A DNA stretch of 64,000 nucleotides. Source: Amphiscolops sp. MND2022 (lineage: Eukaryota). Under the pieces are notes generated by a model. That model saw only the letters and a program-made list of their open reading frames with translations, was not told the origin of the DNA and did no database searches. The position numbers and the translations under genes were made by a program. The DNA is taken from contig OZ076409.1 in assembly GCA_964187785.1 (NCBI GenBank), forward strand, positions 38,502,001 to 38,566,000. Direction: 5' to 3'. Positions 14,480 to 36,984 of this stretch are shown here, piece after piece (position 1 is the first letter of the stretch; every line of letters begins with the position of its first letter).

Positions 14480-16400
14480 TATCAATTAGCAATATTTCTC
14501 AATTTTACGTGCTTCAGCTTTGGTGGCGGTGGTTCCCTGGTTGCAAAAAGAGCCTTGATTCAGCCGACTTGGTGCAAGATCATCCAGAACTGTGACATCC
14601 CACACCAGCTGTTTACCCATTTCCCACGGAAACATGGTAAAACTGTCTGGGCGTTTGCCATCAGTTTCGTACAGTCCACGCGGCTTGAGCAAAGGAGGTA
14701 AGTCGAGAGATCCCAACATCTGCTTTATGAGTGAATTGGGAGTAGCATGACATGAGAAGCGACCGGCACACTTGGTACAAGAAAGACCGTGTAAACCACC
14801 CTGTTCAACATATGTTGGCTCCGAGACGTAAACCAATCCAAATCCGAAGCTGCTTAAGCAAATCAAGATTCAGGCTGAGGATCTTACAAGGAACCACGTT
14901 CAGACACTGAGATCCGAATATGCCTTGATGAGCGTTGAAAACTTTTGACCATTTGGCATCCTCTCCAGAAATGGAGTATTGGCCAGTTTTGACGTGAACG
15001 GGTTGACTTCAATTTTTTTGGGTTCCATCGAGAGGATTCTTTTGTTCAGTCGTCAAACTCAACGATTTCTCAAACGCTTTTATGAACCAAACATCTTTGA
15101 AGGTTTCAGTGAAAATTGTCGTGAGAAAGTCTCTTGCACCAGAAGCAGAGGCCAAAATTGCGGGAAGTGTTGATAACGGTGAGGATAAAACCCCAAGACA
15201 AATCATCGCAACGGAAAAGGCCAGCTGAGTTCTGGAAACATCGTCAAAATTCGTTTCATATTTTGGAAAAACTGTCGCGTACGGTTTTATCATACTTTTC
15301 AAGGGGGCTGAAATATTAAAGCATGTAGTGGTTCTCAACAGAAAGACCATAAGACGCCTCCGGATTTCCAATAACTTCAATAACGTTTTCCAGTTTATTA
15401 CTTTTCTTTTCGAACATGTCTGCCAGCGATTTCCGGCCGAGCGCTGAACCGAGAAGGATAAGTACATCTTCCGTTAGTCTTTTGATTCAAGAACGGATTT
15501 TCTGGAAAAACTCCGTAACTGTTGATCGTCGTTTTGCAGTGATGTAACAGAGGAAAAAACTCCCATTTCATGGCCCTAATTTCCAATGTTTTTTCTGCTT
15601 AAATATTTTTGAGATCTTTCAAATAGTTTCTGTAATCATCACATAAATGTCCATCATCGAGGTACCATGTGTTTGTTTTCGACTGCAATTGGGATCCTGA
15701 CTAGAATCCAAAAACAAAGCACACAGGAGACTCGGGATCTTCTTGCCGGGCCCCTTCAAAATGTTTGATTACCAAATCATCGTTAAAAAAGAAAACTTTA
15801 CTGACTGTACATCGAGTGTGAGTACTTATAAACTTCTGAGTGTGTTTCAAAAATTTTCTGGAGCATGAGTTGTCGGTTTATTGGAATGAAAGCGTTTTAA
15901 AAGTCAACTTTCAACAACAGAACATTTAGTGCCACTTTTGATGCCTACACCTACTTGTCGACTTCCGTATATTGCTTGCCGTGATTTGGAGACATGGTAT
16001 CCGGCACATTTTGCGGAGAACGGGCGGAAAATTTTGCCAACAACAATCGGACAAAGTTCTCCTTCGGGCTTCTCAGCGCAATTCATTCCGCACCGAAGAA
16101 GTAGGATCAAAGTTCGAACGATACTTTTCTTCCGATAATCACAATCACAAGACTCTGAGAAAAGTCAGTCCAGTTTGCGCATTCGAAAAGGCAGGCAAAG
16201 TTCTCGAAATTTAATGCAAAATGTCATCCAAAGCTACAATAGATCCGTTGGGAAAGTACATGTGAGCCATGTGGACAACGAACTCCGAGGTTGAAAACAT
16301 TCAAAAGCTGTGGTGTTAGGAACAGATCAAAGTTCCCTATGCGGATGTTTCAGCTAGAGGCCCGCGTAGTTGTTGATTGTGAAATCGGCAATCTTATAGT
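14480..16400 (-). mobile_element. Decayed RLE-type (CRE-like) non-LTR retrotransposon, copy 2
   Basis: RLE motif TDGKRPDSFTMFPWEMGKQLVWDVTVLDDLAPS (14486-14866), RT WYLDDG near 15650-15670, and LCPIVVGKIFRPFSAKC...QVGVG (15904-16110). Collinear with 3264-4900. Confidence 0.85.
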
Positions 16401-17704
16401 CGCCCACAGCCAATCGGGTTCCTGCCATTTTATTACTTATTATTACTTACGTCTGTTTTAGTGCAAATTGAACGTAGTCGTCGATCTAATTCGCTTCTCT
16501 GTTGCGGTTCCCTGACAAGTTTCGTTTTTTTTCTCTGGAAAACACCGCCCTCAACACGCTTGTTGATTATTGCACCGAGTGATAACCTCTGACGTTTACC
16601 TCATCGAGGTGGTTTTTCCAAAAAGGAAAACAGCTCATAGAGGATAGCAATAAGCACCAAGTGGAGAATATTTGGCGGGGTTTCACGAAAATCATTAATT
16701 TTGGGTATCATGGTTTCAGCTGGGGCGAAGCGTGAATTTTTAGAAATTCTCTTCAAGTGAACAACCCCTCAATTAAAAAGGGTGTCTGGTCCAAGGGATA
16801 GTTTCCACTTGAACACTTAAAACATTACCCCACCCAAATCGAAGACTTCTGACCCCCCATTACACTGATATTGACCAAACCTTCCCTCTCAACCCACTGA
16901 CTTCTGACTGAGAGCAGAACGAGTTGAACGAGTTGGAACTGATACGAGATCGAATGAATACACATAGTAATAAATGAGAAAACAGAAACGCAAAATGCAA
17001 AATTCAGATGAAATAAATACTTGAACAAAGATGAGAAATTGTCACTCAATTGATTTTCGAAATCCGATTACCCAGCCCTTCGAGGATGGTCTCAAGTCTT
17101 GGACCATTTCATTAGAAATGTGCATTTGTTTCTGTTGAGTCGAAGCCAAGTTCCTTAGTCAACGCAATCCTATTGGCAAATTCCCTTTCCTGTTGCTTCT
17201 GAAATCGAAGTGCACTCAGGAAATTTGGAGAAATCCGTGGAACTTTCAGGTTCCCTCTATTATTCAACTTTTACAGAAGTTAGTTGCACGAAGTCTGGTG
17301 GGGAGATCAAAAAAATTCCCTAGGTTTAGTGGTTCGATCCAGGTTCGATAGAAAGATTGATAAACTTGTAACAAATCGGGAAACTACCTTTTTAGCTCCA
17401 CAACTTTTGACTCTCTCAAGGGTTGACTCTCGCGATTGCCTTGCACACTTCATCTTCAGGGAGGTATGCTGATGCCATGAAAAGCCGAACAAATTTTTGA
17501 CAACATCATTGTCATCGTACGGTCTTTTTGAAGCCATATTCAACAACGTGTCCAAAAACAGACTAAGTGAAATGGAAGTAACAACCAATGTGCTCAACCT
17601 CCAAAAATTCGTCTCCATTGCTGTTGTTACGCCTCTTTCGTAATCAGTAACAATCGCTCCCGATATCCACCGTCGCCCTGTTACTCTTCCCCCCTGGTCA
17701 CAAG

Positions 17705-20181
17705 TGTTACGACATATCATCGGGTCGTTTTGAGTAGAACTTATTCTCACTGATTTTGTGGGAGTGTAAAAACTCCTAGTTTCCTCCTCTACTTCTTCAG
17801 TGTTTTCTCTAATAACCCCTTTTGTTTCAGGCTTAAGGAGTTTCAACATCTCCTTCTGAGATTCAATAAGAAGATTCTTAATTTCTGACGTTATTTCTTC
17901 CTTCAATGAAGCCCTCAAACTTTCAAGAAGACTATTTTCAATCCGAGGGGACTTGGGTCTAGAAGGCCCAGCTACTTCATCATCCTGATTCAAAGGACAA
18001 GAATCCCTTACTACTATAGGTGAAATCAAGCCTTCACTTACGTTCTCATCGGTGCTTTGCTGATCGTTCTTTCTTTTTTGGCTTCTTGTTGTTGACATTT
18101 TGTAGAAAAGTTTGATCTCGAAGAATTGAATTTCTTTCGAAGGATTTTCTGACAAAGTAGAACAAGTTGAGAGAGTAGAATTGAAAATTCAACTGAATTA
18201 TGCAATTACAAAAGACTGAGTCCCTTAATCATCAAATCCTATCATATTTATACCCTCCCAGCATCATTTGATCACGAACAAAGCCCTAATTTTCTTTGAA
18301 CAATTAGTCATTTCCTGTATTTTCGATGAAAAAATCATTTTGTTCCCAATTTTACGTCGACTTTTCGTCAATTTTTGAGACACGATGTTCTTCATTCAGT
18401 ATTAGTCATCAAGTTTGATCATATCATTTCATCTCGGCGTCCTTTTGCTTCCTCCCAAGCAGGAAGTAGATATTACTTCAGTCTGTCAAACCGGAAATGA
18501 TTCCCTGTTTTACTGCTTTGGTTCGCGGGAAATTGACGCTGAGATGACGCTGACGTGAACAAAAAATACCTGATTTTGAATTTTGCTTTGACAAAAATGC
18601 TATGACTAATTCCAAAATGGGAATATTTGAACGATGCTAGGACGATATTTTATGAATTTGGACCCAAGCTTTTGCTGAAAGTGAGAATAAAATTGTGATA
18701 TAAAAATAATATTTGTTAGCAACATTGTCGAGTCGTGTCAAATGCGACAAGATTTATAAAATTAACAGCAACGTTTGTTAAATAGCAACATCAACACAAC
18801 GCGTATAACTGGGCAGCAACTGGTCGCACTGGTATAAGAAAACATGAACACAATCACAAATACAGCGCTCAATGTTGTGGAGTACAAAAATGCAAAGTAT
18901 ATGAAAAATACATTTCTGGTACATAATAAGCTTCTAGCTGGGGAGAATAAACTGTGACTTCCTAATTAATCTACTGTGGAATCTTGTAATAAGATGGTTT
19001 ATGCACGGAGATTCCTTTATTGTTAAGAGCACATGATAGTTGCTTAACATGAGGTTAAATTATTCTGCTTGTATCAAAATGCATTCTAAATTAAGACCTT
19101 GAACCATGTAAAAAATCAGCAATACGTTCATTATACGATTTGCAACAGGCTGCAATTTCCCTTCCTTAAAAAATAACGGCACTTATGCGATGAAAACTTG
19201 ACTAAATTCAGCAAATTCATCCATTTTATTCAATTTCATAAACTTGTCAACGTCATGTTGACGAGTTTTCTTGGCAGAGTTGAATTTCATAAACTTGTCA
19301 ACGTCATGTTGACGAGTTTTCTTGGCAGAATAGAGATTTTGACTAGTTTGACGCAATGCTGACGAGTATTTTAGAAATGAGTCTCTCGCTAGTTACCGGA
19401 GCAGTGACGTCACACTGGCGGTAAATTGGAATGATTTCTAGCAATGCTATCAGTATAGGCGGATAATTGGAATGATTTTCTGGTACGCGTATGCGAGGCA
19501 GTGACGTCAATTGGTATGCTTTCAAACTTGTCTGCGTCTTACTGACGACAAATATACATGTACTCCCGTTTCTTTCGCCGCATTGTTTACTCAGCGCAGT
19601 ATTGACGTCCTAAATCGCTTTAATTGCTGTTCAAAAGAGTAATTAAGCTGTCTTTCTAAGAAAAGGCTTAGCTACCACGGTGTGCTGTCTCACTGTAATT
19701 TCCCGTTTTAGGTCCAAATGAAATGTAACTTTTCGGGATTAGTTTTGATGTAATTCCATTTAGATTAGCTTATGGTCTCTTTAATCTTGAGGTAGTTTTA
19801 TTCTAATTTTCAGGTTGTGAATGTTTCATTTGTCGTGGTTGACTCGTCCAGACAAACATGCGTGAAATCATTTTTGGATTATTTTGCCTCCTTATTTCAT
19901 TTCCGCTCAAATTTGCGCGCGGTAAACGTGTATTTTACATTTCCTTTGTTATTTCATCCAATTTTGCGAGAGCATAAAAATCTAGAACGCGTTCATTAGT
20001 TTTATTTGGGATTTTTGCTAGACAAACTATTATTGCGTTTCGAGTCACAGTTTATTTAAATTTAGTTAGAGTTCGAGTTAATAGCCGAAATACCTTTTCG
20101 TGAGTCTTGCGGTGCACCCATGTCCGCGCCCAAAACCAACTCTCCTGCATCCGCAATCCAGTCCGGGAGCGGACTGTGACA
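17705..20181 (-). repeat. 3' LTR (2477 bp)
   Basis: Matches 31585-34061 at offset 13880. I found four substitutions by eye (18732, 18781, 19101, 19126). Confidence 0.98.
19232..19329. promoter_or_regulatory. 51-bp-period tandem duplication in the LTR, each unit with the palindrome GTCAACgtcatGTTGAC (also at 33112-33209)
   Basis: aatttcataaacttgtcaacgtcatgttgacgagttttcttggcaga at 19232-19278 and 19283-19329. Perfect TGACGTCA sites lie nearby at 19405 and 19502. The regulatory role is inferred. Confidence 0.6.
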
Positions 20182-20809
20182 GGGCCACTGTCATGGGGCG
20201 AACGGCTTTACCGGGTTGATAGAAGTCGAACGCCTGTCGCAGGTGATTTTCGCGGGTGTAGTTTTCCTTGGCGACGTCTAGCGCTGATTTTGGCTCCTCC
20301 AGATCGTTTAGAGGACTAGTTGTCAGCAGATTTATTCTTCTCAGTGGGCCAGGGGGCGTGACAAAGTATGAAGAGGCGTCTTCTTGCTGCACCTTCTCCA
20401 GATATTCGGCTACTTTGCTACTTGTTACTGATTCGGTTTGTACAGCTGGGGCTTCTACTATGAATATGTCCGAAGACAAGCTTTCATCGGGGCTTTCCGG
20501 GGAGTCAGCAATAACTTCTTCGGTCGACTCAGAGTGGGGGTATTGTCCCGATTCTACAGTTTCAAAACTAGAGAACGACTCGCTCAGTTTCATTTTCTTG
20601 CATTCTGTTTCTAGTGAATTTACCGATAAGTCGAGGCATTCCTCTTCATCTGCGTTCGCCTCTGCTGATGAATTCAGAATTTCGATGACCAATCCCGGAT
20701 AGGCCCTGCTGTCACTAGGTATTGGGGTAGACGATCTTGTTATTTCGCCCTCCTCCTCGCTTGATGATGAGATGTCAATCAGTTCGTAGATGTCTAACAA
20801 GTTGTTCAT
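20078..20809 (-). CDS. Accessory ORF3 (243 aa): acidic Ser/Glu-rich protein with several SIM-like motifs and a Cys/His basic tail; overlaps the 3' LTR by 104 nt
   Basis: Intact ATG-started ORF in the gag-pol sense. Motifs include LIDISSSSEEE, LVIEIL, CLDLS and DIFIVE; the C-terminus is CGCRRVGFGRGHGC. No signal peptide or TM segment, so not env-like. Confidence 0.7.
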   Translation of the reverse strand: MNNLLDIYELIDISSSSEEEGEITRSSTPIPSDSRAYPGLVIEILNSSAEANADEEECLDLSVNSLETECKKMKLSESFSSFETVESGQYPHSESTEEVIADSPESPDESLSSDIFIVEAPAVQTESVTSSKVAEYLEKVQQEDASSYFVTPPGPLRRINLLTTSPLNDLEEPKSALDVAKENYTRENHLRQAFDFYQPGKAVRPMTVALSQSAPGLDCGCRRVGFGRGHGCTARLTKRYFGY

Positions 20810-20958
20810 TCTGCGGCGAAATTTCTTGGCTGCTGTTTTTCGAGTTTGATTGTTTCACAATGAATTTCCTCGGATAATTGGGATTGCTGAGAATGTTGGG
20901 ATAAATCCCTTCATTCTGATTGGTTAATCAATCTTTTTAATCCTTTTGATCTGCAGTT

Positions 20959-21214
20959 GTTGACGTTATGTCGACAGCTCTTTTTATTGGCCAAGAAATT
21001 GAAGTAATTCCTTTAACCAAACTTGTCAACGTTATGCTGACGTCATTTTCGCTAGCTTAGCTAACTTTTGTAATTTGTCACCGTTATGATGACGTCATTT
21101 TAGATTACAGGATTAATCTCTTAATCTCTATAACCTTTTTGTCGACGTTATGCCGACGTCAATTTCGTTGGTAATTAGCCAACTTTAATTTTTGTCACCG
21201 TTTTGGTGACGTCA
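20959..21214. promoter_or_regulatory. Array of five 17-bp imperfect palindromes (GTYRMCGTTWTGNYGAC) with abutting CRE-like TGACGTCA sites; putative divergent promoter
   Basis: Motifs at 20959, 21025, 21077, 21141 and 21194 (spacing 66/52/64/53). TGACGTCA at 21038, 21090 and 21207. Lies between the ORF3 ATG (20809, -) and the antisense gene ATG (21266, +). Confidence 0.65.
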
Positions 21215-21265
21215 ATTATGGGTGTTTTCATCTGTAGTTTTACTTTCAGATTCTCTGCTGTTTTG

Positions 21266-24200
21266 ATGGATTCTCGTTCCAGAAAACTTCCTGCCAACGA
21301 TCCTGGTGCCCAGAGTGGTCAAGAAACACAGTTTCTCTTTTCGGAGGGAGATGTGCGAGATAGTGAGACCGATCTCGTCAGCCAGCGTGTTCTTGGTGAG
21401 AATTTCCTCTTTATCCCCGCTTTCCATTAAGTCTTTGTGAAAATATACTTTTAGCAGTTAGGCCTTTCCTGCTTTAGTATTTCCACGACTTAGATTTTCT
21501 TGACGCGTCGAAGTTGGGGTTATTGTTTTTAGCGGCTGGTTCAGCTGTCTCCGCTGCTATCTCTTCGCATGACCCTGGGACTTCTTGTCTCCCTGCTGAT
21601 CTTGCCACCGTTCCAGTTGAGCCTCTTGGAGAGCCCTCTGAGGGAGCGACTGCTGCGCTGGTCGATACTTCTGTTCCAATTGCTGTTATTGCCTCTGCGG
21701 GTCCTAGTGCGGAACTTCTTCCTGTTTCTGCTGGGCCCTTGCGTGGTACTCACGGAGGTGAGGACTCTCCCCCCTCTTCTGAAGACGAAAGGACTTTGCA
21801 GAGCTTCAAGGCGGTCAGTAGCCAGGCTGTGACTTCGCCTCGATTCAGTTCATATTTGTCCGGCGTTGCGTCAGCCTTCGGGACCAAGACTTCTTCTCCT
21901 ACCGTCAAACGTGGTAAGTAGATGGAATGTTGTTGTTATTGATTTGTTGTTAATGTTTCTCTCTTTTCCGTGAATGGGTCGTGTTGTTCAGTATCTGTTA
22001 TGTAATTTTGTGTTGACAGTTCGTATGGCATCTCCCGAGAAGCAAGATGTTTGTGTGCCGACGACTTCAAGTCAGCCTCATGTCCTGGCGTCTAGTAGCC
22101 CGAAAAGACCTAGGGGGTTCGAGTTTCTCAGTACTGATGAGGAAACTGTTGTGCCCCCACCGGCTCCTCGAGAAGCTTCACAAGGTACCCGATTGAGAGA
22201 CGTACTCGGCTCGGATGTGGAGGGCTGGTCTTTGGAACCCTTTGTGGCAAGTACGTAATTTCTTTTCCAGAGTTTTTGTGTCGATGCGTGTGTCGCATTT
22301 TGCGTCTGTGTCGGCTTGGCCTAATCGAGGGTTTTCCTGGTGGCGTATGGTTTGTTTGACGCCTGCGTTGTAGCTAAGTCTGTGTTCTAAATTTTTGTTG
22401 TGCTCCTGTTGCATCAGTATTTCATCTAATTAGATGGCTATTTGTGTCAAAATCCATATGTATCTTGTTGGCATCGCCTTCATGTCGAGTTAGCAGTGTT
22501 TTGTTGTTGTAGAATTCGAAGAGTTGGTGAGCAGAGTCGAGACTACCCTCGAGAATGTTTCCCCTAGTCGGAAACGGGTGTACAGCCCGCGTAATCGACT
22601 CCGACGAGATATGGTAGCCAACCATCCAGTTTTCGAGTTGTTTGTGAGTGGCTCCAGCACTGGTTCAAACAAATTGTTCCATTGCATGATTTGCCAACGC
22701 GACGTCTCAATGGAATCACGGGGGGCTGCTGAATTTGCTCGCCATTTCTTCGGGAAGCGCCATTGGGAGCTGGACGTGACCTACCGAGTGCAGAACAATC
22801 TGCCTGTCTTTAACCGGCTGATGGACCCAATGGAGTTGTCCGAGGCTCAGTTGGAGGCGTATGCGAATCGTCCTTCTAAAGGGAAATCTGAAGGCTTCAG
22901 CTTTCCTGAGGATCTTTTGCCCACTTGTACCCGAGTAGATTCGTCTGTGCCCCTGTTGACGATGGTTAATTGTCTGCTCGAACTATGTCGTTGTGGCGGC
23001 AGTTATACCCTACTGCGGCGATTGTGGGGAAGCTTCCGGGCGACTTTGGGCCAGGAGAACCCGTTGTATAAACTGAGTTGGGATCGAGCTGAATCGTTGG
23101 TTAGTTTTTTTTTTCTTTCTTTTGATATCGATGTGTTTGTGCTATTTGTTGAGCTTTCTTTTTGTTGTCGAGATCCGTTACGTCTCATTGACGGCATACA
23201 CTTGTGATGTTGTTTGTCTTGTTTTAGTCTCTGCTTTGTCGTGCCATATTTCCACGTGTGTTGCGATCCCTGTTTGCCCGAGTGACTGCTTTCAAGGATT
23301 ACAGTCTTGTGTACGAGGAACGGGTTGACGGCTTGTACTGTTTCGTGCGTACTTGGGACGACACTAATCTGCAAGAAGTCTGCGTCCGTGTTGAGCCTCT
23401 TGGACAGCGGGTCCCAATTGCCGAGTTATCTTGCATGTCGCGCGTTGTCGATAGTCTCGTTTCATGCCGGTGGCCAATAGCTATACAAGGTGGGAGTCCT
23501 ACCTTGCATCGTGTGCTAAGTGACAATCGGGTGGATGGGCGTCGCTTCATTGTCTGTCGCGAGTTCACAGAAGATGTTTTCCTGCAAAGCTACCGAGAGG
23601 CGCATCACGAGATTTTTGGCATGTTGGAAATGACGTCTATGGTCGACTTTCTGATGCTTCGTCTACGTGGTGCCTTACAGGAGCCTTGGATGGAAGACGT
23701 AGTGGATCTTCGTCGTTGCGTTGTTGCTGGGCGTGTTGCCTTCGCTGAACTTTGTGGAGTAGTTACTGACCTAATCTCAATCTGGGAGTCAGTTCGAGAA
23801 TACGTGCGGTATACTGGTCCTGTTGAGCTGCAGACCCAACCTGAGAGGGTAAGTTCCTTTATATGTTTTTAATTGCATCGGCGGGGTGTCAACTTTGTGT
23901 AGTTGGGTGGGTCTTTCGGGGGTTTCTGTAGCGTATTATGCTTTCATCTTTGTGATTTGGTTTGTTTGTGTTGCAGATGCGCGGAATCGACTGGCTTGTA
24001 TTCTCAGAGAATACGAATGAGCTGCGCCTGGGTCTGTTTCTTCACATTTTGGAGCTGCGTTAGTTATATTTGTGTGGTATAGTGGTGTTCCTTTTGACAT
24101 GGGGGTGGGTTATTTTTGGTATTTAGATTCCTGTACTTTCAAAAAACAGCGGGCTAGACGAGGAGATTACACTTTTCACTGCTATAGTGAGTTGTGCCAG

Positions 24201-25358
24201 TTCGTCTATTGTCTGTTGACCCGAAGCCGAAAAGTGTCGTCTCTGCCAGAAATGAATTCATGGGAAGATTACATGGATTCAGAGAAGATTGCCAGCTTCC
24301 CCAAGACCAGTGATGCTACTTTTCTCTGCAATTTTGAGTTTGGTGAGGTTCTCCGGCAGAGAAATACAAGTGAAGTCAAGGATTTCCGTACTCGATGTCG
24401 CCGTTTTATCGATCGTCTTGTGGACGTCATTTTGTCGAAATTGTTGGTATCCTCTGATTTCTTGCAGGGCGTGTACTGCTTCTGTCCTGAGTTGCTTCTG
24501 GGTGGAGATGATCACTGTGTTTTCGCTCTGTTCAGCCGATTGATGCGCGTTCTCGAGAAGAGCGGGGTTGTATCCAGTGCAGAGTCAAGGAGTGCAGTTG
24601 AGGAGTTCGCCACGTTTGTTGTGGACATTCGTGCTCGCCATTTGTCTAGCGGACAGCAGTCCGAAGATATCGCTGATGTGATTTCTTATCTTCTAGCTGA
24701 TTATGGCTTTTTGGCACGCAAGTCTTTGTGTCACGTCTTTAAATTGTGCTGCCTCATGATTCGGAGGCCTTTGCCTCATTATCCTCAAGTGGATATCAGC
24801 TTAAATGGGTGTGATGTTCCCTCCAGTATTGTGACATCGTGTATTCGGGGCATCCAAAGTTATGTTTCCACTTCTCATTACCAGCAGGGATCTTTCTTCA
24901 CAAAGCATACCATGGAGTGTGTTCGTTCTGCTATCTCGGGGTCGCAAGATTTCATGGTACAGGCTGATTTTGATCCTTGGAATAGAGTGTGCAGTGATGG
25001 TCATGCAGTTTTTATGGAACGCTTCCAGAATTTGTTTAAAGATCATCTTGCACGTCGTAAGGAGGGAGCTCATGATCGTCTGTATCGTGCTAATCGCTCA
25101 AAACCTGCTAGAGATAGTGATACTTCGTGTGCTGTTGGAAGTGGTGGAAGCCCTACTTCGTCTGTTGTCTCTGCTCCTGCAACTAGTACTTCAAGTAGTG
25201 CTGTATCTTTTCGTCAGAGTAAGACTCGGGTTCATAGCAGTTTGGCTTCCTTGCTTGGGCGGAAGAAAGAGTGCAAAGTGAGTGGGACTAGTTGTTCCAA
25301 GGAGAAAGTGACGAAACGAGGTCAGAAAAGTCAGAAATCTGGGGGAGGATCCAAGTAA
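21266..25358 (+). CDS. Seven-exon antisense gene inside the retrotransposon; ~1087-aa protein with a C-x2-C-x16-H-x5-H zinc finger and hAT-transposase-like core
   Basis: Exons 21266-21395, 21533-21913, 22020-22250, 22513-23099, 23228-23848, 23977-24058 and 24127-25358. All six introns are GT...AG (donors GTGAGA, GTAAGT, GTACGT, GTTAGT, GTAAGT, GTTAGT) with T-rich acceptors. Phases 1,1,1,0,0,1 match on both sides, giving 3264 nt with no internal stop. Confidence 0.85.
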
Positions 25359-25607
25359 CATTACGTTATCAGTAACTTGCATTAGTCTGATTTATTGTTG
25401 TAGTTAGTTTGTTGTTTCCGTTTTAATGTATTGTTTTGAATTTGCAATGAGTCGTCGCTATGATGACCATTATAATTGATGTTGTAGTGGTAAAAGGATA
25501 TGTACAGGAGTAGTTAGTAAAAAGAAAAAGAAGAGGGTAGTTGTGTACCCTAATTGAAATTTGTCAAATCGGTTCGATTTGGACTCCTGTCGTTATCTTT
25601 TCTCTTT

Positions 25608-28600
25608 TTAGTGAGTCGTAGTTATAGCGTCAAGTCGTCTGAAGTCAGGGTTAGCATTAGGTTTAGGATTAGGTCTCAGATTATACTTTGCTGTTTTCCT
25701 TGGGTTATACCCGACAACTGTAGGCGGTGATCTTGGGGGAATAGGTGGGCTTTCAAGGGGTGGGGGGCGGCGTATGTATGGGTTATCCCCCACGTCTGTA
25801 GTAAGGTTTGAAAAATCCGGAGACGGCGGCGCCTCGTCATTCAGGTCATTAGTTCGGTTTCTTGGCATTTGTGTCGTCGTGTTTTCGTCATTCGTGTTTG
25901 TCACTTCTTGTATTTCTGCGTGTTGGTTATGTTTTGTATCAATTGATGTTTCGTGTTCGTCAATTTGTTTGCCGAAATCCATTTCCCACGATACCGCATA
26001 CCACTCATTGTGTGACACTTTGACTTCTGGATCGGGAAGATACTCGTTTGCTCGTACTGTGACGTCAGGCACGCGTTGTTCTGGCGTGTAAGGTCGTATA
26101 CGAATTCTGTGTAGTGTTTGTGTGTATCGCGTGCCAGTTTTTCGTATTGTGTAATTGTTATTTGAGAGTACTTTGATTACTATGTACGGTCCCGTCCAGA
26201 TACAATCTTGAAATGCAAACTTTGTCGATTGATTGTCAGCTTTCGGATTGAGGATGTAGCAGTAATCGTTGATCTTCAGTGGAGCAGCAGACGCTTTGCG
26301 GTCGTAATATTTTTTATATTTGAGGTAGGATAGCATTATATTGTCCTTTGTTGTCGCCCGTACCTCGTCTATTTGTTTTTGTATTTGCTCTGCTATGTCC
26401 GAGTTGGGCGTTGTTTTCCACTTTGGCTTGATTCCTAATTTTAGGTCGAGGACATTGTAAGGTATTCGTCCGTGGAATACTGTAGATGGTTCACAGCCCA
26501 GAGTCTCGTGGTATGTTGTATTGTAGTTCATTACAGCTATTTGGACATACTTGTGCCACATTGAACGTCGTTCGCCCGTCGAAATTTTTAGTGCGGTTTT
26601 GATTGACGCGTGTGTTCTTTCTAAAATTCCGATCGTCTGTGCATGTTTTGTAGACGCATGGCTGATTTGAATCTCGAGTATTTGGGCTATTTCTGTGACG
26701 ACTTCTGATCGAAATTGTGAGCCCTTGTCTGATAGGATTAGTGTTGGCAAGTATGCATGTCTTGTCATGACGTCGACAATGCATCGTCCGATTGTCTTTG
26801 CTGTGGTATTCTGTGTTGGGTAGGCGAATAGGTATCGTGAAAATACGTCAATCATCGTAACGATGTTTTGGTATCCTGCAGAGTTGGGTAGATTCGGTAG
26901 TATGTCAATTTCGAGAATGTCTTCCGGGCCCAGAACGTGTTCTGTGTTGTTAATCATCTTTGGTCTGATTTGACTATTGCTGATTCGTTTGTATTTGATG
27001 CAGTCTTCACATTGCATTACCCACTGTCTGATTTTCTTCGCCAAGCCAGGGTAATAATACTTTGATCGGCATTCTTGGATCATTTTTGTGATCCCTGGGT
27101 GTTTTCCCATTTGTCCATGAATTGCTTTTAGGAGTTCTGTGATCAAATGGTCGGGGATTAGTATTTGGTTATGTGTGACCTGGCCGCATTCTCCATAGTA
27201 TTTGCGCATTAGTACTCCATCTTTGACTATAAGTCTGTTTTCGTGTACTAGTAGACGTTTTGCTGTCGGGTCAGTTTGTAAGAGATGTTTATCATATTCT
27301 TCACATATCAGTTTTCTTTTGATTGCTTTGAATACTTGGTTTGAGTCTTGTTCGACCCTGATGCGTGCGTCTTCCTTGATTGTCCCGAATGTATATGCGG
27401 CTTTGTTTATTGGTATCGGTAGTGTTTCGGTTATAGATAGTTTGATTTTTGTCGTTTCTTCGTCGCGGGCGTTCTGTCTAGCTTGTTCTTTCTGGGCGAG
27501 AATTTCCTCCTCAGTTTCGATTGTTTCATCAGGAAGGAAGAAAAGTTGTTCCTCGTCCGCTACGTCTGTGGATTGTAGGTTCACTTGTATTGGTCTGATT
27601 GTAATGTCGTTTCTGATCTTTAGTTCGACTCTTTCCTTGGGGTTGAGATCGATTCTTGACAGAAAGTCGGCTGCCGTATTTTGCGTACCAGCTACGTGCA
27701 TTATATGAAAATTGAATTGTAGCACATAGTCACACGCATTCCATAGCGTAGGTGGTATGGCTTTTGTTTGAAAGAACCTTGTTACTGATCTGTTGTCTGT
27801 CATTACGAGAGTTGGTAGGGTTGTTTCCCATAATATGTGGCTGTATTCTAGGAAGGCGTGGTAGATTGCCAGAAATTCTTTGCAATAGATTGACATCTTG
27901 AATTGTGCTGGTGAGAATACTTTTGATCCAAATGCTACAGGCGCGAAGGTTTTCTTCTTGGAATTGAGTTTTTTGTCGTTTTCTTCTTCGATCATTAGGG
28001 CGTATCCTGAGGCACGAAAACTAGCGTCTGTCATTAGGACGTATTGTCGTCCTGTAATTGGTTGTTTGAGGGCTAGTCCACATGCTTCCGCTAATGCTGT
28101 GTTGATCGCTTTGTATTGATCTAATAGTTCTTCTGTGATTTTGATTTGTTTGTCAGCTTTCAGTAGTTGGTAGAAACCGAGTAGCTTTTCGGACAACCTC
28201 GGGATATAGTTGCGGTAGTAGTTGACAAAGCCTATGTATCTCTGTACTTGTTTCTTTGATTTCGGGAATCGTACGTTTGCTAAGAATTTCTGGATTTTGT
28301 GGTCTTGGGGGGCGATTCCTTGTGGGGTGATCGTTCTTCCAAGGAATTCGACCTTGGTCACTCCAAAGTGGCATTTGTCGATGGATAGTTTGAGTCCTGC
28401 TTGTCTGATGCATTCGAAGACGGCTCGGATGTTTCGTATCAGCTGCGTCACGGAGTTGGCGGCTATGCCGATGTCGTCCACATATTGTGCACATTGGTCA
28501 GCTTTGATTACTTTATCCAAATATTCCCTCATGAAACTAGAGAATGCTGATAAAGCTCTGCTCAGTCCTTGTGCTAGTCGTTTGTAGGCGAACGTTCTGC

Positions 28601-30554
28601 TTGCGAAGTTGAACGCTAGCATTTCGATTGATCTCTGGTCTGCCATCTGTAGACAGTGGTATGCTTGGGAGCAATCTAATTTGCAGAACAACTTTTTCCC
28701 TGCTAAGTGTTGGGCTGCGTCCGACAGGGTGCTGACTGGGTGGTTGTTGTTGATGTAATCATCTGAAATTAGGGCGTTTATTTTCCGTAGGTCAACGAGT
28801 AATCGCAGCTTGCCATTCGGTTTGCGTTGTGCAAAAATTGGGCTCGCATATTTTGAGAATGGTAGGGTCGTTATTATGCCGTACCTATGCATTAGTGCTA
28901 ATTCGACTGTTAGATCTTCTTTCAGGTTAATTGGTACCGGCAAGCTTTGCGTGTAAATTGGGCGCTCGTCCTTCGGAGTTAGTTTGACTTTGAAGCTATT
29001 GTTGATTCCGATGTCAAGGCGATGTCGGGCAAAGATATCGTTGTATTCCACTATTGTTTGCTCGAGTTGCTTCCTGTCATTGCCTTCGATTTGAGAACCC
29101 TCCCACTGGAACATGTCGAGGAACTTTTGTCTTGAGTCCTGGTCTTTGGTTGGGTCTAATTTTTCTTTCTGGATTAGTTCACGGATTTCCTTCAGGATCC
29201 GTCGTTGGATTGGCGTATGTTCTTCTTCGTTTCCCGGATTCTCAGGTGTGGGAAACCAGAAATTTTCATCACCCTGTTCAGTTTCGTTGGCCTTCATGAG
29301 TTCATTGACGTACATGTGGGTGTCATCAGGATCGTCTAGCAATTTGAGTGCTGCGGCGTCAACTGGTCGTATTTGTTTCGTGTCTTCAGGTTTGAGGATT
29401 TGTAGTTCTGCCAGCTTTGTATGATTCTTTATTGTATGTGGAAAATCCGTTAGGTTGGCGATTCTGATGTTGAGCCTTTTGTTATGGGCTGTCGCCAGAG
29501 CTGGTGCAACAATGATTGTTGCGGTTTCATCAAATTGTGGTAGTGGTTGTACCGCACCAGTGACGTTATGCAAGTTTGTGGTTATTACTATTGCGTTCAC
29601 TGTTGTGGTTTGTTGGGGTGGTAGGGTTTGATTTCCTTCTGCCATTATTTGGAGCGGTTTCGGGTTGCACTTTTTCATCTCGTCCGTCATGGCTAGCGTC
29701 ATTTCTACGTGCGGGAAATTAATGGTCCCGTTGGCAGTGTCTATTACTGCTTGGTGATTTCTCATGAAGTTCAATCCTATGATGGGAAATGACGTTTTCG
29801 ATAGGATGACGAAGGTGTCCGTGAAGGTATATGTTCCGATGTTGAACTGGATGTCCGCTGTGGCTATTGGTTGCTCTAGTTGTGCGTTTGCGCATTCAAT
29901 CTTGAAAGGAGGTTGAGGGTACTCTTTTATGACGCAACTATCACTGTTCATTTTGATTGCGTTGTAGTCTGACCAGGACATGGCATTGATGAACGCACCG
30001 GAGTCGACAAGTCCATCCATTGTTATTTCACCGAATTCTAGTGGCAAGTACAGCATTCTCCTTCTGTTTTTGAGGATTATAGTGGAGTGGAGAGGTATAT
30101 ATGTTTCTCCATCCTTTTCGGCTACGTACTCCTTGATTGAGTTGAGTGATGTGGGGAAATCGTCTGGGGGCGGAAATGTCTTGGTGAAGCTGTGATTATC
30201 TCCTTCATTTTGTTGTGACGATAGGTGATCGTCGGAGGCGCTTTCATTTTGTTCTACCTGGTTTATAGCGGAGAGTTCTCTGTTGATGGGGGTTAAGTTG
30301 GTAGGACGATTTGCTTGTTGTTTAGGATTGTCCCTGTAGTCTTTGTCGTGAGTGTAGGTGTCTGCTTGTTCGGTTGGTGGATATGGCCTTTTTATAGAAG
30401 CGAGTGCTTGTCGTCTTAGCCAATCTACCGTTGGTGTGCCATCGCACCCTACTGTTGAGTCGTTTGTATAGGTGATGGGGGGATCTGTTGATGAGTACGC
30501 CCTCGCGGCTACGGTTTCCCCGAAACGCAGGCGCGGCGTATCTAGTTTTTTGAT
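25608..30554 (-). CDS. pol: pol polyprotein (PR-RT-RNase H-IN), expressed by -1 frameshift from gag
   Basis: LVDSGA (protease), LDCSQAY and YVDD (RT), TDAS...DNR...ADFLSR (RNase H), H-x5-HPG...CEDC with DILP/SDKG/ERTH (integrase), WTGPY (GPY/F) and YNLRP. Manual translation shows the frame stays open upstream of the 30056 Met back to 30554. Confidence 0.97.
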   Translation of the reverse strand: MKKLDTPRLRFGETVAARAYSSTDPPITYTNDSTVGCDGTPTVDWLRRQALASIKRPYPPTEQADTYTHDKDYRDNPKQQANRPTNLTPINRELSAINQVEQNESASDDHLSSQQNEGDNHSFTKTFPPPDDFPTSLNSIKEYVAEKDGETYIPLHSTIILKNRRRMLYLPLEFGEITMDGLVDSGAFINAMSWSDYNAIKMNSDSCVIKEYPQPPFKIECANAQLEQPIATADIQFNIGTYTFTDTFVILSKTSFPIIGLNFMRNHQAVIDTANGTINFPHVEMTLAMTDEMKKCNPKPLQIMAEGNQTLPPQQTTTVNAIVITTNLHNVTGAVQPLPQFDETATIIVAPALATAHNKRLNIRIANLTDFPHTIKNHTKLAELQILKPEDTKQIRPVDAAALKLLDDPDDTHMYVNELMKANETEQGDENFWFPTPENPGNEEEHTPIQRRILKEIRELIQKEKLDPTKDQDSRQKFLDMFQWEGSQIEGNDRKQLEQTIVEYNDIFARHRLDIGINNSFKVKLTPKDERPIYTQSLPVPINLKEDLTVELALMHRYGIITTLPFSKYASPIFAQRKPNGKLRLLVDLRKINALISDDYINNNHPVSTLSDAAQHLAGKKLFCKLDCSQAYHCLQMADQRSIEMLAFNFASRTFAYKRLAQGLSRALSAFSSFMREYLDKVIKADQCAQYVDDIGIAANSVTQLIRNIRAVFECIRQAGLKLSIDKCHFGVTKVEFLGRTITPQGIAPQDHKIQKFLANVRFPKSKKQVQRYIGFVNYYRNYIPRLSEKLLGFYQLLKADKQIKITEELLDQYKAINTALAEACGLALKQPITGRQYVLMTDASFRASGYALMIEEENDKKLNSKKKTFAPVAFGSKVFSPAQFKMSIYCKEFLAIYHAFLEYSHILWETTLPTLVMTDNRSVTRFFQTKAIPPTLWNACDYVLQFNFHIMHVAGTQNTAADFLSRIDLNPKERVELKIRNDITIRPIQVNLQSTDVADEEQLFFLPDETIETEEEILAQKEQARQNARDEETTKIKLSITETLPIPINKAAYTFGTIKEDARIRVEQDSNQVFKAIKRKLICEEYDKHLLQTDPTAKRLLVHENRLIVKDGVLMRKYYGECGQVTHNQILIPDHLITELLKAIHGQMGKHPGITKMIQECRSKYYYPGLAKKIRQWVMQCEDCIKYKRISNSQIRPKMINNTEHVLGPEDILEIDILPNLPNSAGYQNIVTMIDVFSRYLFAYPTQNTTAKTIGRCIVDVMTRHAYLPTLILSDKGSQFRSEVVTEIAQILEIQISHASTKHAQTIGILERTHASIKTALKISTGERRSMWHKYVQIAVMNYNTTYHETLGCEPSTVFHGRIPYNVLDLKLGIKPKWKTTPNSDIAEQIQKQIDEVRATTKDNIMLSYLKYKKYYDRKASAAPLKINDYCYILNPKADNQSTKFAFQDCIWTGPYIVIKVLSNNNYTIRKTGTRYTQTLHRIRIRPYTPEQRVPDVTVRANEYLPDPEVKVSHNEWYAVSWEMDFGKQIDEHETSIDTKHNQHAEIQEVTNTNDENTTTQMPRNRTNDLNDEAPPSPDFSNLTTDVGDNPYIRRPPPLESPPIPPRSPPTVVGYNPRKTAKYNLRPNPKPNANPDFRRLDAITTTH
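30496..30551 (-). promoter_or_regulatory. -1 programmed ribosomal frameshift signal: slippery A AAA AAC plus downstream GC-rich stem-loop
   Basis: Minus strand TCA AAA AAC TAG ends gag, and pol is in the -1 frame (ATC AAA AAA CTA). TACGCC...GGCGTA encloses a TTTC-GGG-GAAA inner hairpin. Confidence 0.85.
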
Positions 30555-31978
30555 TCATCTGCGGCTTGATTTGTCTGTTGTTGTGCAGAGTTATCTTGTT
30601 TTCTTTCTTGTTGGAAATGTCGTTTAGGTCTCGGGTCGTTTGCCGAGTTAGCTCCGTTCCAACAGTTTTCTGTTTTGTGGGGTTTTCCACAGGTATCGCA
30701 TTTGGAGGTAATCCCGGTGGTGTTTCTGGTATGGCCATTATGTTTTCTTGTTTGTTGCCATTTGTCTCTCCGCAGTTTGCGGCATTCAGCCTTGAAATGG
30801 CCAAATTTATTGCAATAAAAGCAGTACCCTTTTTTAGTGTTTTGGGTAGTGTTTTCGGCTTGTTTGGGCTCAGTTTTTGTTGGGGCTGGTTCTGCTTTAT
30901 TGAGGGGTACCAGAGTTACATCGTCTGGTGCTCCAAGTCCGTTAAGTCGCATTTCTCTCTCTAGGTGTAGGACAATGTCGTTATAGGGCTTGTCTTCGAG
31001 GTATGCCCTATTTAATATTTTCTGCACGTGATCTGGCATTTTCGCGTAGATTGCTTTGTCGATAAATTGCTGAGCTTGTGAACCGAACGCCTCTTTTGCT
31101 GTTTTTTGAAGGACGTCCAGGAATTCGTGGAGTTTCTGTGTCGAGGGATCGAATTTAAGTGCGTCCCATTCACATCTGGCTTTTGCCATCGACAAGTAAT
31201 CTCCGAAGCGTCGTTTGAAAATCGTCATGATCTCATCAAGTGAATCCTTTTTCGTATCTTCGATATTACAAAATGCTTGTAAGGCGTCTCCCCTGAGGAG
31301 GGAGTGGAAGTAGTTTATTTTTTGGATTTCAGTAAGGTGCGGGTACATTTTTATGTTATTCCGAAAAAGGTCTTCGAATAGTTCGAATTTTTCCGACTTC
31401 CCGTCGAAGGTCGGGAGTGACGCCGTGAGTGCTTTTGGCATGGGTAGAGTAGTGCTATCATTTTTATCTGTTGCGAATAAAGTCCTTGCCGCCACTGGAC
31501 GTTCCTTTGACGGCGGCTGGCTCTGAGACCTGGCTTTTGTTCTTTTTGGCTGGTTTGTGGAATCGGTTAGGACTCCTGTCACCATGTTACGACATATCAT
31601 CGGGTCGTTTTGAGTAGAACTTATTCTCACTGATTTTGTGGGAGTGTAAAAACTCCTAGTTTCCTCCTCTACTTCTTCAGTGTTTTCTCTAATAACCCCT
31701 TTTGTTTCAGGCTTAAGGAGTTTCAACATCTCCTTCTGAGATTCAATAAGAAGATTCTTAATTTCTGACGTTATTTCTTCCTTCAATGAAGCCCTCAAAC
31801 TTTCAAGAAGACTATTTTCAATCCGAGGGGACTTGGGTCTAGAAGGCCCAGCTACTTCATCATCCTGATTCAAAGGACAAGAATCCCTTACTACTATAGG
31901 TGAAATCAAGCCTTCACTTACGTTCTCATCGGTGCTTTGCTGATCGTTCTTTCTTTTTTGGCTTCTTGTTGTTGACAT
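30542..31978 (-). CDS. gag: gag (478 aa from first ATG), with a capsid-like region and two zinc knuckles
   Basis: ATG at 31978 (MSTTRSQKRK); LPTFDGKSEKFELFE; CFYCNKFGHFKAEC (CX2CX4HX4C) and CDTCGKPHKTENC. The start lies inside the 5' LTR. Confidence 0.93.
   Translation of the reverse strand: MSTTRSQKRKNDQQSTDENVSEGLISPIVVRDSCPLNQDDEVAGPSRPKSPRIENSLLESLRASLKEEITSEIKNLLIESQKEMLKLLKPETKGVIRENTEEVEEETRSFYTPTKSVRISSTQNDPMICRNMVTGVLTDSTNQPKRTKARSQSQPPSKERPVAARTLFATDKNDSTTLPMPKALTASLPTFDGKSEKFELFEDLFRNNIKMYPHLTEIQKINYFHSLLRGDALQAFCNIEDTKKDSLDEIMTIFKRRFGDYLSMAKARCEWDALKFDPSTQKLHEFLDVLQKTAKEAFGSQAQQFIDKAIYAKMPDHVQKILNRAYLEDKPYNDIVLHLEREMRLNGLGAPDDVTLVPLNKAEPAPTKTEPKQAENTTQNTKKGYCFYCNKFGHFKAECRKLRRDKWQQTRKHNGHTRNTTGITSKCDTCGKPHKTENCWNGANSANDPRPKRHFQQERKQDNSAQQQTNQAADESKN
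31571..31584 (-). promoter_or_regulatory. Primer-binding site (TGGTGACAGGAGTC), probably tRNA-Leu-type
   Basis: Begins TGG immediately after the 5' LTR. The plus strand ACTCCTGTCACCA differs at one base from the metazoan tRNA-Leu(CAG) 3' end ACTCCTGACACCA as I recall it. Confidence 0.75.
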
Positions 31979-34061
31979 TTTGTAGAAAAGTTTGATCTCG
32001 AAGAATTGAATTTCTTTCGAAGGATTTTCTGACAAAGTAGAACAAGTTGAGAGAGTAGAATTGAAAATTCAACTGAATTATGCAATTACAAAAGACTGAG
32101 TCCCTTAATCATCAAATCCTATCATATTTATACCCTCCCAGCATCATTTGATCACGAACAAAGCCCTAATTTTCTTTGAACAATTAGTCATTTCCTGTAT
32201 TTTCGATGAAAAAATCATTTTGTTCCCAATTTTACGTCGACTTTTCGTCAATTTTTGAGACACGATGTTCTTCATTCAGTATTAGTCATCAAGTTTGATC
32301 ATATCATTTCATCTCGGCGTCCTTTTGCTTCCTCCCAAGCAGGAAGTAGATATTACTTCAGTCTGTCAAACCGGAAATGATTCCCTGTTTTACTGCTTTG
32401 GTTCGCGGGAAATTGACGCTGAGATGACGCTGACGTGAACAAAAAATACCTGATTTTGAATTTTGCTTTGACAAAAATGCTATGACTAATTCCAAAATGG
32501 GAATATTTGAACGATGCTAGGACGATATTTTATGAATTTGGACCCAAGCTTTTGCTGAAAGTGAGAATAAAATTGTGATATAAAAATAATATTTGTTAGC
32601 AACATTGTCGAATCGTGTCAAATGCGACAAGATTTATAAAATTAACAGCAACGTTTGTTATATAGCAACATCAACACAACGCGTATAACTGGGCAGCAAC
32701 TGGTCGCACTGGTATAAGAAAACATGAACACAATCACAAATACAGCGCTCAATGTTGTGGAGTACAAAAATGCAAAGTATATGAAAAATACATTTCTGGT
32801 ACATAATAAGCTTCTAGCTGGGGAGAATAAACTGTGACTTCCTAATTAATCTACTGTGGAATCTTGTAATAAGATGGTTTATGCACGGAGATTCCTTTAT
32901 TGTTAAGAGCACATGATAGTTGCTTAACATGAGGTTAAATTATTCTGCTTGTATCAAAATGCATTCTAAATTAAGACCTTAAACCATGTAAAAAATCAGC
33001 AATACATTCATTATACGATTTGCAACAGGCTGCAATTTCCCTTCCTTAAAAAATAACGGCACTTATGCGATGAAAACTTGACTAAATTCAGCAAATTCAT
33101 CCATTTTATTCAATTTCATAAACTTGTCAACGTCATGTTGACGAGTTTTCTTGGCAGAGTTGAATTTCATAAACTTGTCAACGTCATGTTGACGAGTTTT
33201 CTTGGCAGAATAGAGATTTTGACTAGTTTGACGCAATGCTGACGAGTATTTTAGAAATGAGTCTCTCGCTAGTTACCGGAGCAGTGACGTCACACTGGCG
33301 GTAAATTGGAATGATTTCTAGCAATGCTATCAGTATAGGCGGATAATTGGAATGATTTTCTGGTACGCGTATGCGAGGCAGTGACGTCAATTGGTATGCT
33401 TTCAAACTTGTCTGCGTCTTACTGACGACAAATATACATGTACTCCCGTTTCTTTCGCCGCATTGTTTACTCAGCGCAGTATTGACGTCCTAAATCGCTT
33501 TAATTGCTGTTCAAAAGAGTAATTAAGCTGTCTTTCTAAGAAAAGGCTTAGCTACCACGGTGTGCTGTCTCACTGTAATTTCCCGTTTTAGGTCCAAATG
33601 AAATGTAACTTTTCGGGATTAGTTTTGATGTAATTCCATTTAGATTAGCTTATGGTCTCTTTAATCTTGAGGTAGTTTTATTCTAATTTTCAGGTTGTGA
33701 ATGTTTCATTTGTCGTGGTTGACTCGTCCAGACAAACATGCGTGAAATCATTTTTGGATTATTTTGCCTCCTTATTTCATTTCCGCTCAAATTTGCGCGC
33801 GGTAAACGTGTATTTTACATTTCCTTTGTTATTTCATCCAATTTTGCGAGAGCATAAAAATCTAGAACGCGTTCATTAGTTTTATTTGGGATTTTTGCTA
33901 GACAAACTATTATTGCGTTTCGAGTCACAGTTTATTTAAATTTAGTTAGAGTTCGAGTTAATAGCCGAAATACCTTTTCGTGAGTCTTGCGGTGCACCCA
34001 TGTCCGCGCCCAAAACCAACTCTCCTGCATCCGCAATCCAGTCCGGGAGCGGACTGTGACA
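31585..34061 (-). repeat. 5' LTR (2477 bp)
   Basis: Direct repeat of 17705-20181, adjacent to the PBS. Confidence 0.98.
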
Positions 34062-34721
34062 ACAAGTTACTTGGCTTAAAGTCAATTTGCTTAAGTTTTT
34101 CGTCGAGTCATTTAGCTTAAAAGTATCAAGCCAAATGACCATAAAAATAGACCAAATGCATTCAAACTCAAGCAATGGCTAAAAGCAACCTTTCAAAGAC
34201 CAAACGAAATTGAATTAACTAGATGTTCAAGAGACGAAAAACAAATGTTTTAGCATGTTTGTTGATTGCCTCGGCCGTTTTCCTCCTTTCGTCAAGTAGC
34301 AGCCTGTTGAGCGGGGACATATGGCACGTCGCTGCGCTTTGCTTCGCTCCTGCATTTATGGCATTAGGGGTTTGTGAACATAGCGGATTGCGTAATTATA
34401 GAATTTCGACAAAATCTCTCACGCGTTTCAGTTTGGTGATTGTTAGCCGAACAACTCTAAGCCAAGTTAAAATTACCTATGACATTTGCCTCAAAAAAAA
34501 ACTAAGTGATCAAATGCTTTACGCCACATGTTTCAAGCCAAATGATTTTAGGCCAGGTGATTTTAAGCCAAATGGCCAATTACCTCTCTTTCTTGAGCAG
34601 ATAACCTGAAATAAATTTCGGTAGTGATAAGTAGTGTAACCAAAAAAAGCAAAAAAAAACTAGCGTCAAGAACTGGTTTTCCCATGACCCAACGAGGACA
34701 TTGAACTGATAATACTTGTTT

Positions 34722-35337
34722 ACCAAATCATCGTTAAAAAAGAAAACTTTACTGACTGTACGTCGAGTGTGAGTACTTATAAACTTCTGAGTGTGTTTCA
34801 AAAATTTTCTGGAGCATGAGTTGTCGGTTTATCGGAATGAAAGCGTTTTAAAAGTCAACTTTCAACAACAGAACATTTAGCGGCACTTTTGATGCCTACA
34901 CCTACTTGTCGACTTCCGTATCTTGCTTGCCGTGATTTGAAGACATGGTATCCGGCACATTTTGCGGAGAACGGGCGGAAAATTTTGCCAACAACAATCG
35001 GACAAAGTTCTCCTTCGGGCTTCTCAGCGCAATTAATTCCGCACCGAAGAAGTAGGATCGAAGTTCGAACAATACTTTTCTTCCGACAATCACAGTCACA
35101 AGACTCTGAGAAAAGTCAGTCCAGTTTGCGCATTCGAAAAGGCAGGCAAAATTCTCGAAATTTAATGCAAAATGTCATCCAAAGCTACAATAGATCCGTT
35201 GGGAAAGTACATGTGAGCCATGTGGACAACGAACTCCGAGGTTGAAAACATTCAAAATCTGTGGTGTCAGGAACAGATCAAAGTTCCCTATGCGGATGTT
35301 TCAGCTGGCGGTCCCACGTAGTTGTTGATTGTGAAAT
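34722..35337 (-). mobile_element. CRE-like non-LTR retrotransposon RT fragment, copy 3
   Basis: Near-identical to 15769-16386; truncated on the right by the palindromic element. Confidence 0.85.
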
Positions 35338-36622: not shown

Positions 36623-36984
36623 ATGGATTACAAAATGAAGCAACTTCTAATGTACAAATAAAAGAAATACTTAATGAACTAGACACACCGTGTGGAGTGT
36701 ACTTGAGAGACGATAAGTTTACAACTACGGCAGGAATAGTTAACTTACATCCAACTAAAGGAACACACTGGATTATGTTTACAAATCAAAATTACTTTGA
36801 TTCAAATGGCTGTTCTTCACCAATAAACCTAATAAAACAAATTATTGGAGGTGTATATTCAAAATATCAAATGAAGAAAAATGATGGTTACTGTGCTGCG
36901 TATTGTTTGTATGTGTTATATCTCACAAATATAATAGGCTTTAAAATGCAGTACTTAATTTATACTACCAAATTTTATGAATAA
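36623..36984 (+). pseudogene. Adenain-like (Polinton) cysteine protease remnant; mirror copy ~43960-44310 (-)
   Basis: GIVNLHPTKGTHW...YFDSNG...YQ...GYCAAYCLY gives the His/Asp/Gln/Cys order of adenovirus-type proteases. Frameshifted. Confidence 0.75.

Follow-up and report, generated by a model that had tools for sequence, protein, structure and literature searches.

The window analysed here, a stretch of 64,000 nucleotides (nt) from Amphiscolops sp. MND2022 (contig OZ076409.1 of assembly GCA_964187785.1, positions 38,502,001 to 38,566,000), contains a long terminal repeat (LTR) retrotransposon that carries, antisense to its own genomic RNA and downstream of pol, a gene of seven exons and six introns. 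Sequence comparison indicates that this spliced antisense open reading frame (ORF) is very probably a real, translated gene. Because its splice sites are conserved, its ratio of replacement to synonymous divergence (dN/dS) is low, it is present in 20 of 20 elements picked by their reverse transcriptase (RT) and an intron-free sister lineage exists, the gene is best read as a selected, family-wide accessory gene, and neither as a chance join of frames nor as a passenger. An original prediction made from the letters of the window had proposed the spliced gene and its antisense setting; every coordinate has held, and selection, splice-site conservation and the sister lineage bear the proposal out, whereas the label of "cargo gene" given to it is replaced by that of accessory gene. 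The encoded protein probably descends from a hAT transposase.

The joined coding sequence (21266-25358, plus strand) is 3264 nt long and encodes 1087 amino acids (aa), its sole stop being the terminal codon. All six introns (137, 106, 262, 128, 128 and 68 nt) begin with GT and end with AG, their phases from intron 1 to intron 6 are 1, 1, 1, 0, 0 and 1, and they are richer in T than the exons (GC content 0.34-0.42 vs 0.46-0.56). Exon 1 (21266-21395) starts with ATG and is separated by intron 1 (21396-21532), whose conservation is unusually high, from exon 2 (21533-21913), which is rich in serine, proline and alanine and shows the weakest constraint of all exons. Intron 2 (21914-22019), exon 3 (22020-22250) and intron 3 (22251-22512) follow. 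Exon 4 (22513-23099) encodes a C2H2 finger and the best-conserved domain of the protein, and exon 5 (23228-23848), beyond intron 4 (23100-23227), is predicted to encode a core of strands and helices followed by further helices. After intron 5 (23849-23976) come the 82 nt of exon 6 (23977-24058), intron 6 (24059-24126) and exon 7 (24127-25358), with a predicted helical domain, a serine- and lysine-rich tail and a TAA stop. De novo prediction of the 5′ exons, which covered 7 of 10 loci, recovered the phases 1, 1 and 1 in L061 and L065, skipped exon 3 in the window, L071 and L075, and gave other models in L069 and L073. Within intron 1, the motif ACGCGT (21503-21508) lies 29 nt ahead of the acceptor end; it is found in 27 of 34 copies of the lineage of the window (hereafter clade A) and in a like place in all nine copies of the intron-free sister lineage (clade B), and it may mark a branch-point region or a cis element.

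Selection on the gene was assessed within the 1.07-Gb assembly, where a DNA search gave 35 matches; 30 of these were fetched, namely the window and 29 others, one of them incomplete. The 29 other copies retain 342 of 345 splice dinucleotides. The dN/dS of the spliced frame is 0.12-0.28 in all 29 copies and 0.13-0.14 in the four copies of about 80% identity, in which it falls to 0.07-0.08 over codons 291-990. In these four copies, each of the seven exons has dN lower than dS, exons 1-3 included (exon 3, for instance, with dN 0.16-0.19 and dS 0.58-0.71). When the remaining reading frames were used as controls in six copies, four of the five gave a dN/dS of about 0.8-1.9. The fifth, an opposite-strand frame that shares its third positions with the gene, gave 0.19-0.33, yet in the far copies it has acquired 11-14 stops, where the spliced frame has 1-3. 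Among copies of 94-99% identity, the widely shared insertions and deletions are one of +9 nt in exon 2 and others of 1, 7 or 8 nt in the introns. Counting the window, 13 of 29 full-length copies have a spliced frame that is open throughout.

Some observations weigh against the gene as drawn, above all in its 5′ part. The introns as a whole diverge by 0.27-0.28, which is less than the synonymous sites (0.65-0.69), though more than the replacement sites (0.09), and among close copies intron 1 is less variable than the exons that flank it. Exon 2 has a net frameshift in all four copies of the 80% subfamily, and exons 1-3, for which the sister lineage provides no intron-free control, are a weak point of the model.

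The sister lineage came to light through a profile search of 1.84 billion proteins, which gave 771 matches at E 0.001. The best 150 of them were inspected and all are unnamed; they include a protein of 890 aa that led to 27 relatives and to 51 scored places in this genome. The 27 stored proteins are intron-free, and their alignments, at 26-33% identity, pass straight through junctions 4-6; relative to one of them, P0296, the junctions show just two gaps, of 7 aa at the fifth and 2 aa at the sixth. All ten clade-B loci examined are LTR elements in which the gene lies antisense to a pol that is about 53% identical, and in them exons 4-7 form a single intron-free frame. Leaving out L171, which is cut off, intron 4 is present in all 30 clade-A elements (99-145 nt) and absent from all nine of clade B, and introns 5 and 6 taken jointly follow the same split. 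At the level of sequence, these relatives are an independent check of splicing at junctions 4-6. The 5′ part of the clade-B gene, examined by eye in one copy, apparently retains about four introns, the last at the position of intron 3, whose acceptor leads into the long clade-B ORF. Clade-A subfamilies without intron 6 only were also sought, and all 30 elements sampled retain intron-sized gaps. Loss of introns through complementary DNA (cDNA) has an established 3′ bias, and the loss of the three 3′-most introns would fit such a process; the tree of clades A and B has no outgroup, so the direction of change (gain or loss) cannot be read from it, and its three long branches are probably frameshift artefacts. 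Proteins P0296, P0313, P0333 and P0338 find a best match of only 36-53% in this genome, that is, no close copy, and for this reason the gene family is likely to extend to other genomes. A hint of a third intron pattern comes from P0299 and P0333, which seem to be interrupted within the region of exon 7.

The gene accompanies its carrier throughout the family. In ten far clade-A elements, with exon 7 mostly 51-65% identical, exons 1, 4, 5, 6 and 7 are found in order, antisense to pol and flanked by LTRs in all ten, and of 70 splice sites projected onto them, 65 read GT or AG with the phase unchanged. For a sample chosen independently of the gene, rows 16-150 of an RT similarity search were sampled at every seventh row, which gave 20 elements; exons 1, 4, 5 and 7 are antisense and in the same place in all of them, and exon 6 was detected in 13. 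These elements are close RT relatives (98-100%) and are not informative for distant Gypsy families. First looks at the genome gave 7,633 and 11,115 candidate places, which are not copy numbers, and the family appears to be very numerous in this genome. The core of the antisense gene has a dN of 0.32-0.39 against 0.03-0.05 for pol (19 elements), a replacement drift about ten times faster, and near-identical RT sequences are paired with many divergent versions of the antisense protein. An ORF that lies between the gene and the 3′ LTR, ORF3, matches that of the window at 93-97% identity in eight of the 20 elements, although exon 7 in these eight reaches only about 50%, and in L020 and L025 the dS is 0.12 in the antisense gene vs 0.56-0.58 in pol. 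Such mosaics (among L191-L210, L020 and L025) indicate that the gene, ORF3 and pol are modules that are swapped between families. The pol frames are also broken in many copies. Matches spaced by about 13.6-14 kb (G000:C10:2575926-2603866, G000:C13:16515582-16554205 and L077) suggest head-to-tail arrays of elements, and an internal deletion of pol is seen in L077/L078.

The protein consists of about 250 low-complexity residues, the C2H2 finger, the conserved core and the serine- and lysine-rich tail. The four residues of the finger (C305, C308, H325 and H331) are conserved in both clades, and the finger has no match to the Pfam family zf-BED. The two clades (7 and 23 rows) have 91 conserved positions in common, 40 of which fall within residues 277-441, which comprise the finger and the next domain. 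Hydropathy over 19 aa reaches at most 1.62, no sign of a strong membrane segment, and basic residues form several clusters. A by-eye likeness to hAT transposases was noted, and a hAT link predicted, ahead of the tests. The origin of the protein from a hAT transposase rests on two weak but concordant signals, its neighbours in a language-model Atlas and the fold rank of Hermes. In the predicted structure of exon 5, three strands are followed by a helix, a strand, a helix, a strand and then helices, an order that would suit an RNase H-like core with a helical insertion, and a fold search with this model placed the Hermes transposase first among 48,161 chains (Z 4.4, root-mean-square deviation 15.4, 139 residues aligned). 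Residues 1-201 of the model were laid on residues 148-350 of Hermes, the only top row to cover both halves, and a second fold look returned four Hermes entries among 50 rows. Among the Atlas neighbours of P0296, five of the six rows that bear a family belong to hAT-type Pfam families, with scores of 0.79-0.82. When the Hermes alignment was read by eye, an acidic residue stood at the first catalytic position in one of 30 rows; at the second, 23 rows had G and 4 had D, while the third could not be placed. On this by-eye register, the two N-terminal catalytic aspartates would be replaced and the catalytic acids are apparently gone, and because the D-D-E triad is apparently lacking the protein is not filed as a transposase.

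Other results speak against a hAT origin. No Pfam family rises above noise for the protein or its relatives, PF05699, the dimerisation domain at the C-terminus of hAT transposases, is absent in 53 relatives of exon 7, and sequence and profile searches of the solved structures of the PDB gave no match. The Z of 4.4 for Hermes ties with unrelated rows and lies within the range that is commonplace for the tool, the exon-5 model is poor (predicted local distance difference test, pLDDT, 59.8), and Atlas scores below 0.9 are leads only. For exon 7, whose model is better (pLDDT 74.1), neither Foldseek nor a wide search gave a clear fold match, and its Atlas neighbours are RabGAP-TBC clusters (0.80-0.82). 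A comparison set of hAT frames was drawn from this genome (150 matches to PF05699, 70 loci used), and profile and profile-profile tests against it did no better than reversed or shuffled controls. None of seven candidates from a DUF4371 search of the genome was confirmed, the control being silent too, and a metagenome scan with the exon-5 alignment gave 20 pattern matches, none confirmed.

How the gene is expressed can be proposed from the sequence around its start. The stretch of about 450 nt between ORF3 and exon 1 (20810-21265) contains repeated GACGTCA-type motifs, with 3-7 matches in seven of seven elements, and is likely to be an internal two-way promoter. At 21244-21252 on the plus strand, 16 nt ahead of the ATG, lies a conserved TT(T/C)CAG-AT site, present in 32 of 34 clade-A copies and, as TTYAG-AT, in six of nine clade-B copies, which may be a splice acceptor, a trans-splice acceptor or an initiator. 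The gene may accordingly have a further untranslated 5′ exon or a trans-splice site. In the proposed history, an ancestral element would have taken up a hAT transposon between pol and the 3′ LTR, and the captured gene would have lost its catalytic acids and retained the finger and the DNA-binding part. The internal promoter would yield a precursor RNA from which the host spliceosome removes the introns, and these would outlast reverse transcription since the packaged RNA is the opposite strand. The original prediction had held that introns can persist in a retroelement only in this orientation; the antisense layout stands and the word "only" does not, as spliced sense-strand env genes are described for Tor3a (PMC4402516) and Bagy2 (PMC7264820). 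Such genes can exist because the unspliced RNA is packaged, and the antisense position simply removes the packaging conflict for six introns at once. The spliced message would then give a nuclear DNA-binding protein that, in the step held least firmly, would bind the LTR or internal promoter of its own element and either counter silencing or activate the element.

A nuclear DNA-binding regulator of the element that is a catalytically dead hAT transposase by origin is, taken as a whole, a proposal just short of even odds, and the regulatory part is reasonably likely once a translated gene and a hAT origin are granted. The faster drift than pol and the reshuffling against pol and ORF3 would suit a regulator that faces the host, for instance an anti-silencing factor. 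They suit less well a protein of the same origin that acts in the particle or the pre-integration complex, where it would bind cDNA ends or target DNA and aid nuclear entry or steer integration. The finger and the adjacent domain are indeed the best-conserved parts, the tail is basic, the gene occurs in all 20 RT-picked elements, and such a function has been proposed for plant antisense ORFs (PMC7264820); the divergent versions carried on near-identical RT, together with the drift, nevertheless fit a host-facing role better, and we consider a particle role unlikely. The product might instead be a repressor by which the element limits itself, or the element might be dampened by the antisense RNA, with the protein secondary. 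About 4 kb of the genomic RNA would be complementary to the transcript, control of retrotransposons by antisense RNA is discussed in PMC7264820, and HBZ of human T-cell leukaemia virus (HTLV) is a nuclear antisense product (PMC11963269). Selection at the level of codons, however, requires a function of the protein, and the family is very numerous, which makes this explanation doubtful.

The gene could also be a real accessory gene of other descent, captured from a host or a virus or belonging to a family without described relatives. Every sequence-level hAT test was negative and the fold scores are weak, but hAT is what two unrelated methods point to, on the stretch of Hermes that had been expected in advance, and no other family recurs, so that a non-hAT origin seems improbable. 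That a DNA transposon or host gene merely rides in one element without benefit, or that frames were joined by chance, is very improbable and largely refuted. In 15 of the 28 full-length copies besides the window, the spliced frame is not open throughout, as might be seen in a passenger; broken copies are, however, expected after insertion, and pol is broken in many copies as well. Between lineages dN/dS is far below 1, splice sites are kept while intron lengths drift, and the gene is shared by two lineages that are about 47% apart in pol. Returning to the dead hAT transposase, one mobile element has likely tamed another. The wider proposal, in which the dead transposase is now a required antisense gene, processed by the spliceosome, that has gained or lost introns during its stay in a reverse-transcribed genome and serves as a fast-evolving cassette swapped between families against host silencing, stands at about an even chance.

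The carrier is a young LTR element of 16,357 bp on the minus strand (17705-34061); its LTRs, of 2477 bp, are 99.7% identical and bounded by TG...CA, and a target-site duplication of 5 bp flanks it (17700-17704 on the left, 34062-34066 on the right). The pol frame (25608-30554, minus strand, 1648 aa) is convergent with the antisense gene and contains Asp_protease (166-272, weak, E 0.013), RVT_1 (577-742), RT_RNaseH (807-942) and Integrase_H2C2 and rve (1133-1302), an order of protease, RT, RNase H and integrase that is that of Gypsy. The gag frame (30542-32068, minus strand), with DUF1759 and a weak zinc knuckle, starts within the 5′ LTR (31585-34061, minus strand). Its first ATG lies near 31978, so that about 130 gag codons are found in each LTR (31585-32068 and 17705-18188), and the same is seen in far elements. 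A TGG-led site resembling a primer-binding site (31570-31584, minus strand) adjoins the 5′ LTR within gag, and its first 13 nt are identical in six of six elements. The 30 nt that precede the 3′ LTR (20182-20211) contain no long purine run in any of six elements, and because of this missing tract the carrier is labelled Gypsy-like and not canonical. The 3′ LTR (17705-20181, minus strand) duplicates the 5′ part of gag and also takes in the end of ORF3 (20078-20809, minus strand, 243 aa), which lies in the sense of the element, head-to-head with the antisense gene. ORF3 extends into the 3′ LTR at the point where the polypurine tract is absent. It has no Pfam match, its dN/dS is 0-0.32 in the seven copies that give a value, and it is present in all 20 RT-picked elements. 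ORF3 occupies the position of env, and clade B has a frame in the same place (L181, 5247-6044).

Elsewhere in the window, an AT-rich inverted duplication (35331-45601) has arms of about 5 kb that are 80-95% complementary around a centre near 40400, and a tandem array (52379-56984) comprises 6-7 copies of units of about 720 bp. A tandem duplication of 1073 bp occupies positions 1-1661, a gap of 200 N lies at 6416-6615, a repeat of 97% identity flanks the element (15760-16059 and 34711-35010), and no tRNA was found within the 64 kb.

The antisense accessory ORF described here combines a candidate hAT origin with a host-like arrangement of exons and introns and has thousands of candidate places in one genome. 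If the proposed origin is true, it would be a case of domestication of one transposon by another. It would also provide a dated natural series for the loss or gain of introns and for arms races of accessory genes, because the sister lineages differ by exactly the three 3′-most introns and modules are shuffled among families. For genome annotation, such copies would pass as multi-exon genes of the host.

Comparison with known systems places the gene between several of them. VANC of the Arabidopsis VANDAL transposons is an element-encoded, fast-diverging anti-silencing protein that guards its own family, and by analogy it could serve as a model for the role proposed here; it differs in being carried by a DNA transposon and in belonging to another protein family. 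As in Hermes and other hAT transposases, and in dead derivatives such as ZBED, FAM200 and DUF4371, a C2H2 finger precedes a predicted RNase H-like core and helices; unlike them, the gene resides inside a retrotransposon, rather than occupying a transposon of its own or a fixed site in the host genome, its catalytic acids are apparently gone and it has no hAT match in Pfam. HBZ of HTLV-1 is a small basic leucine zipper protein driven from the 3′ LTR, and a relation in sequence was neither sought nor expected. An LTR promoter is also described in PMC7264820. The two are alike as antisense-encoded accessory products of LTR retroelements, nuclear for HBZ (PMC11963269) and predicted to be so here. 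The Tor elements of Oikopleura (PMC4402516) are animal LTR elements in which an additional gene downstream of pol has an internal promoter of its own, and this gene is spliced in Tor3a; that gene is a sense-strand membrane env, in contrast to the antisense, multi-exon gene described here, which is not membrane-like. In the titles and abstract openings of the open literature, no multi-intron or hAT-derived antisense gene of an LTR element was found, although supplements, subscription papers and repeat libraries may hold one, and a term search of PMC13524379 did not return "antisense". Antisense ORFs downstream of pol are known in plants and one fungus. Such ORFs have had no established origin or function (PMC7264820), and a 2020 review found that those of plants bear no likeness to other elements. 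The closest parallels are the aORF-3R genes of plant Gypsy elements (gene23 of maize Grande, rice RIRE2 and TRP28 of Retand), which are likewise antisense, lie between pol and the 3′ LTR and occur in most copies (PMC7264820; PMC11963269); Grande gene23 has its own promoter and a nuclear product (PMC7264820). The word "intron" is absent from the main text of the Retand paper (PMC11963269), and Pfam scans of the present protein gave no match to the TRP28 domain (PF04195), so that it is not a Retand-type ORF. In conclusion, the antisense gene of the Amphiscolops element shares its position and orientation with the plant aORF-3R genes and is set apart from them by its six introns, its length of about 1090 aa, its likely hAT origin and its lack of TRP28.

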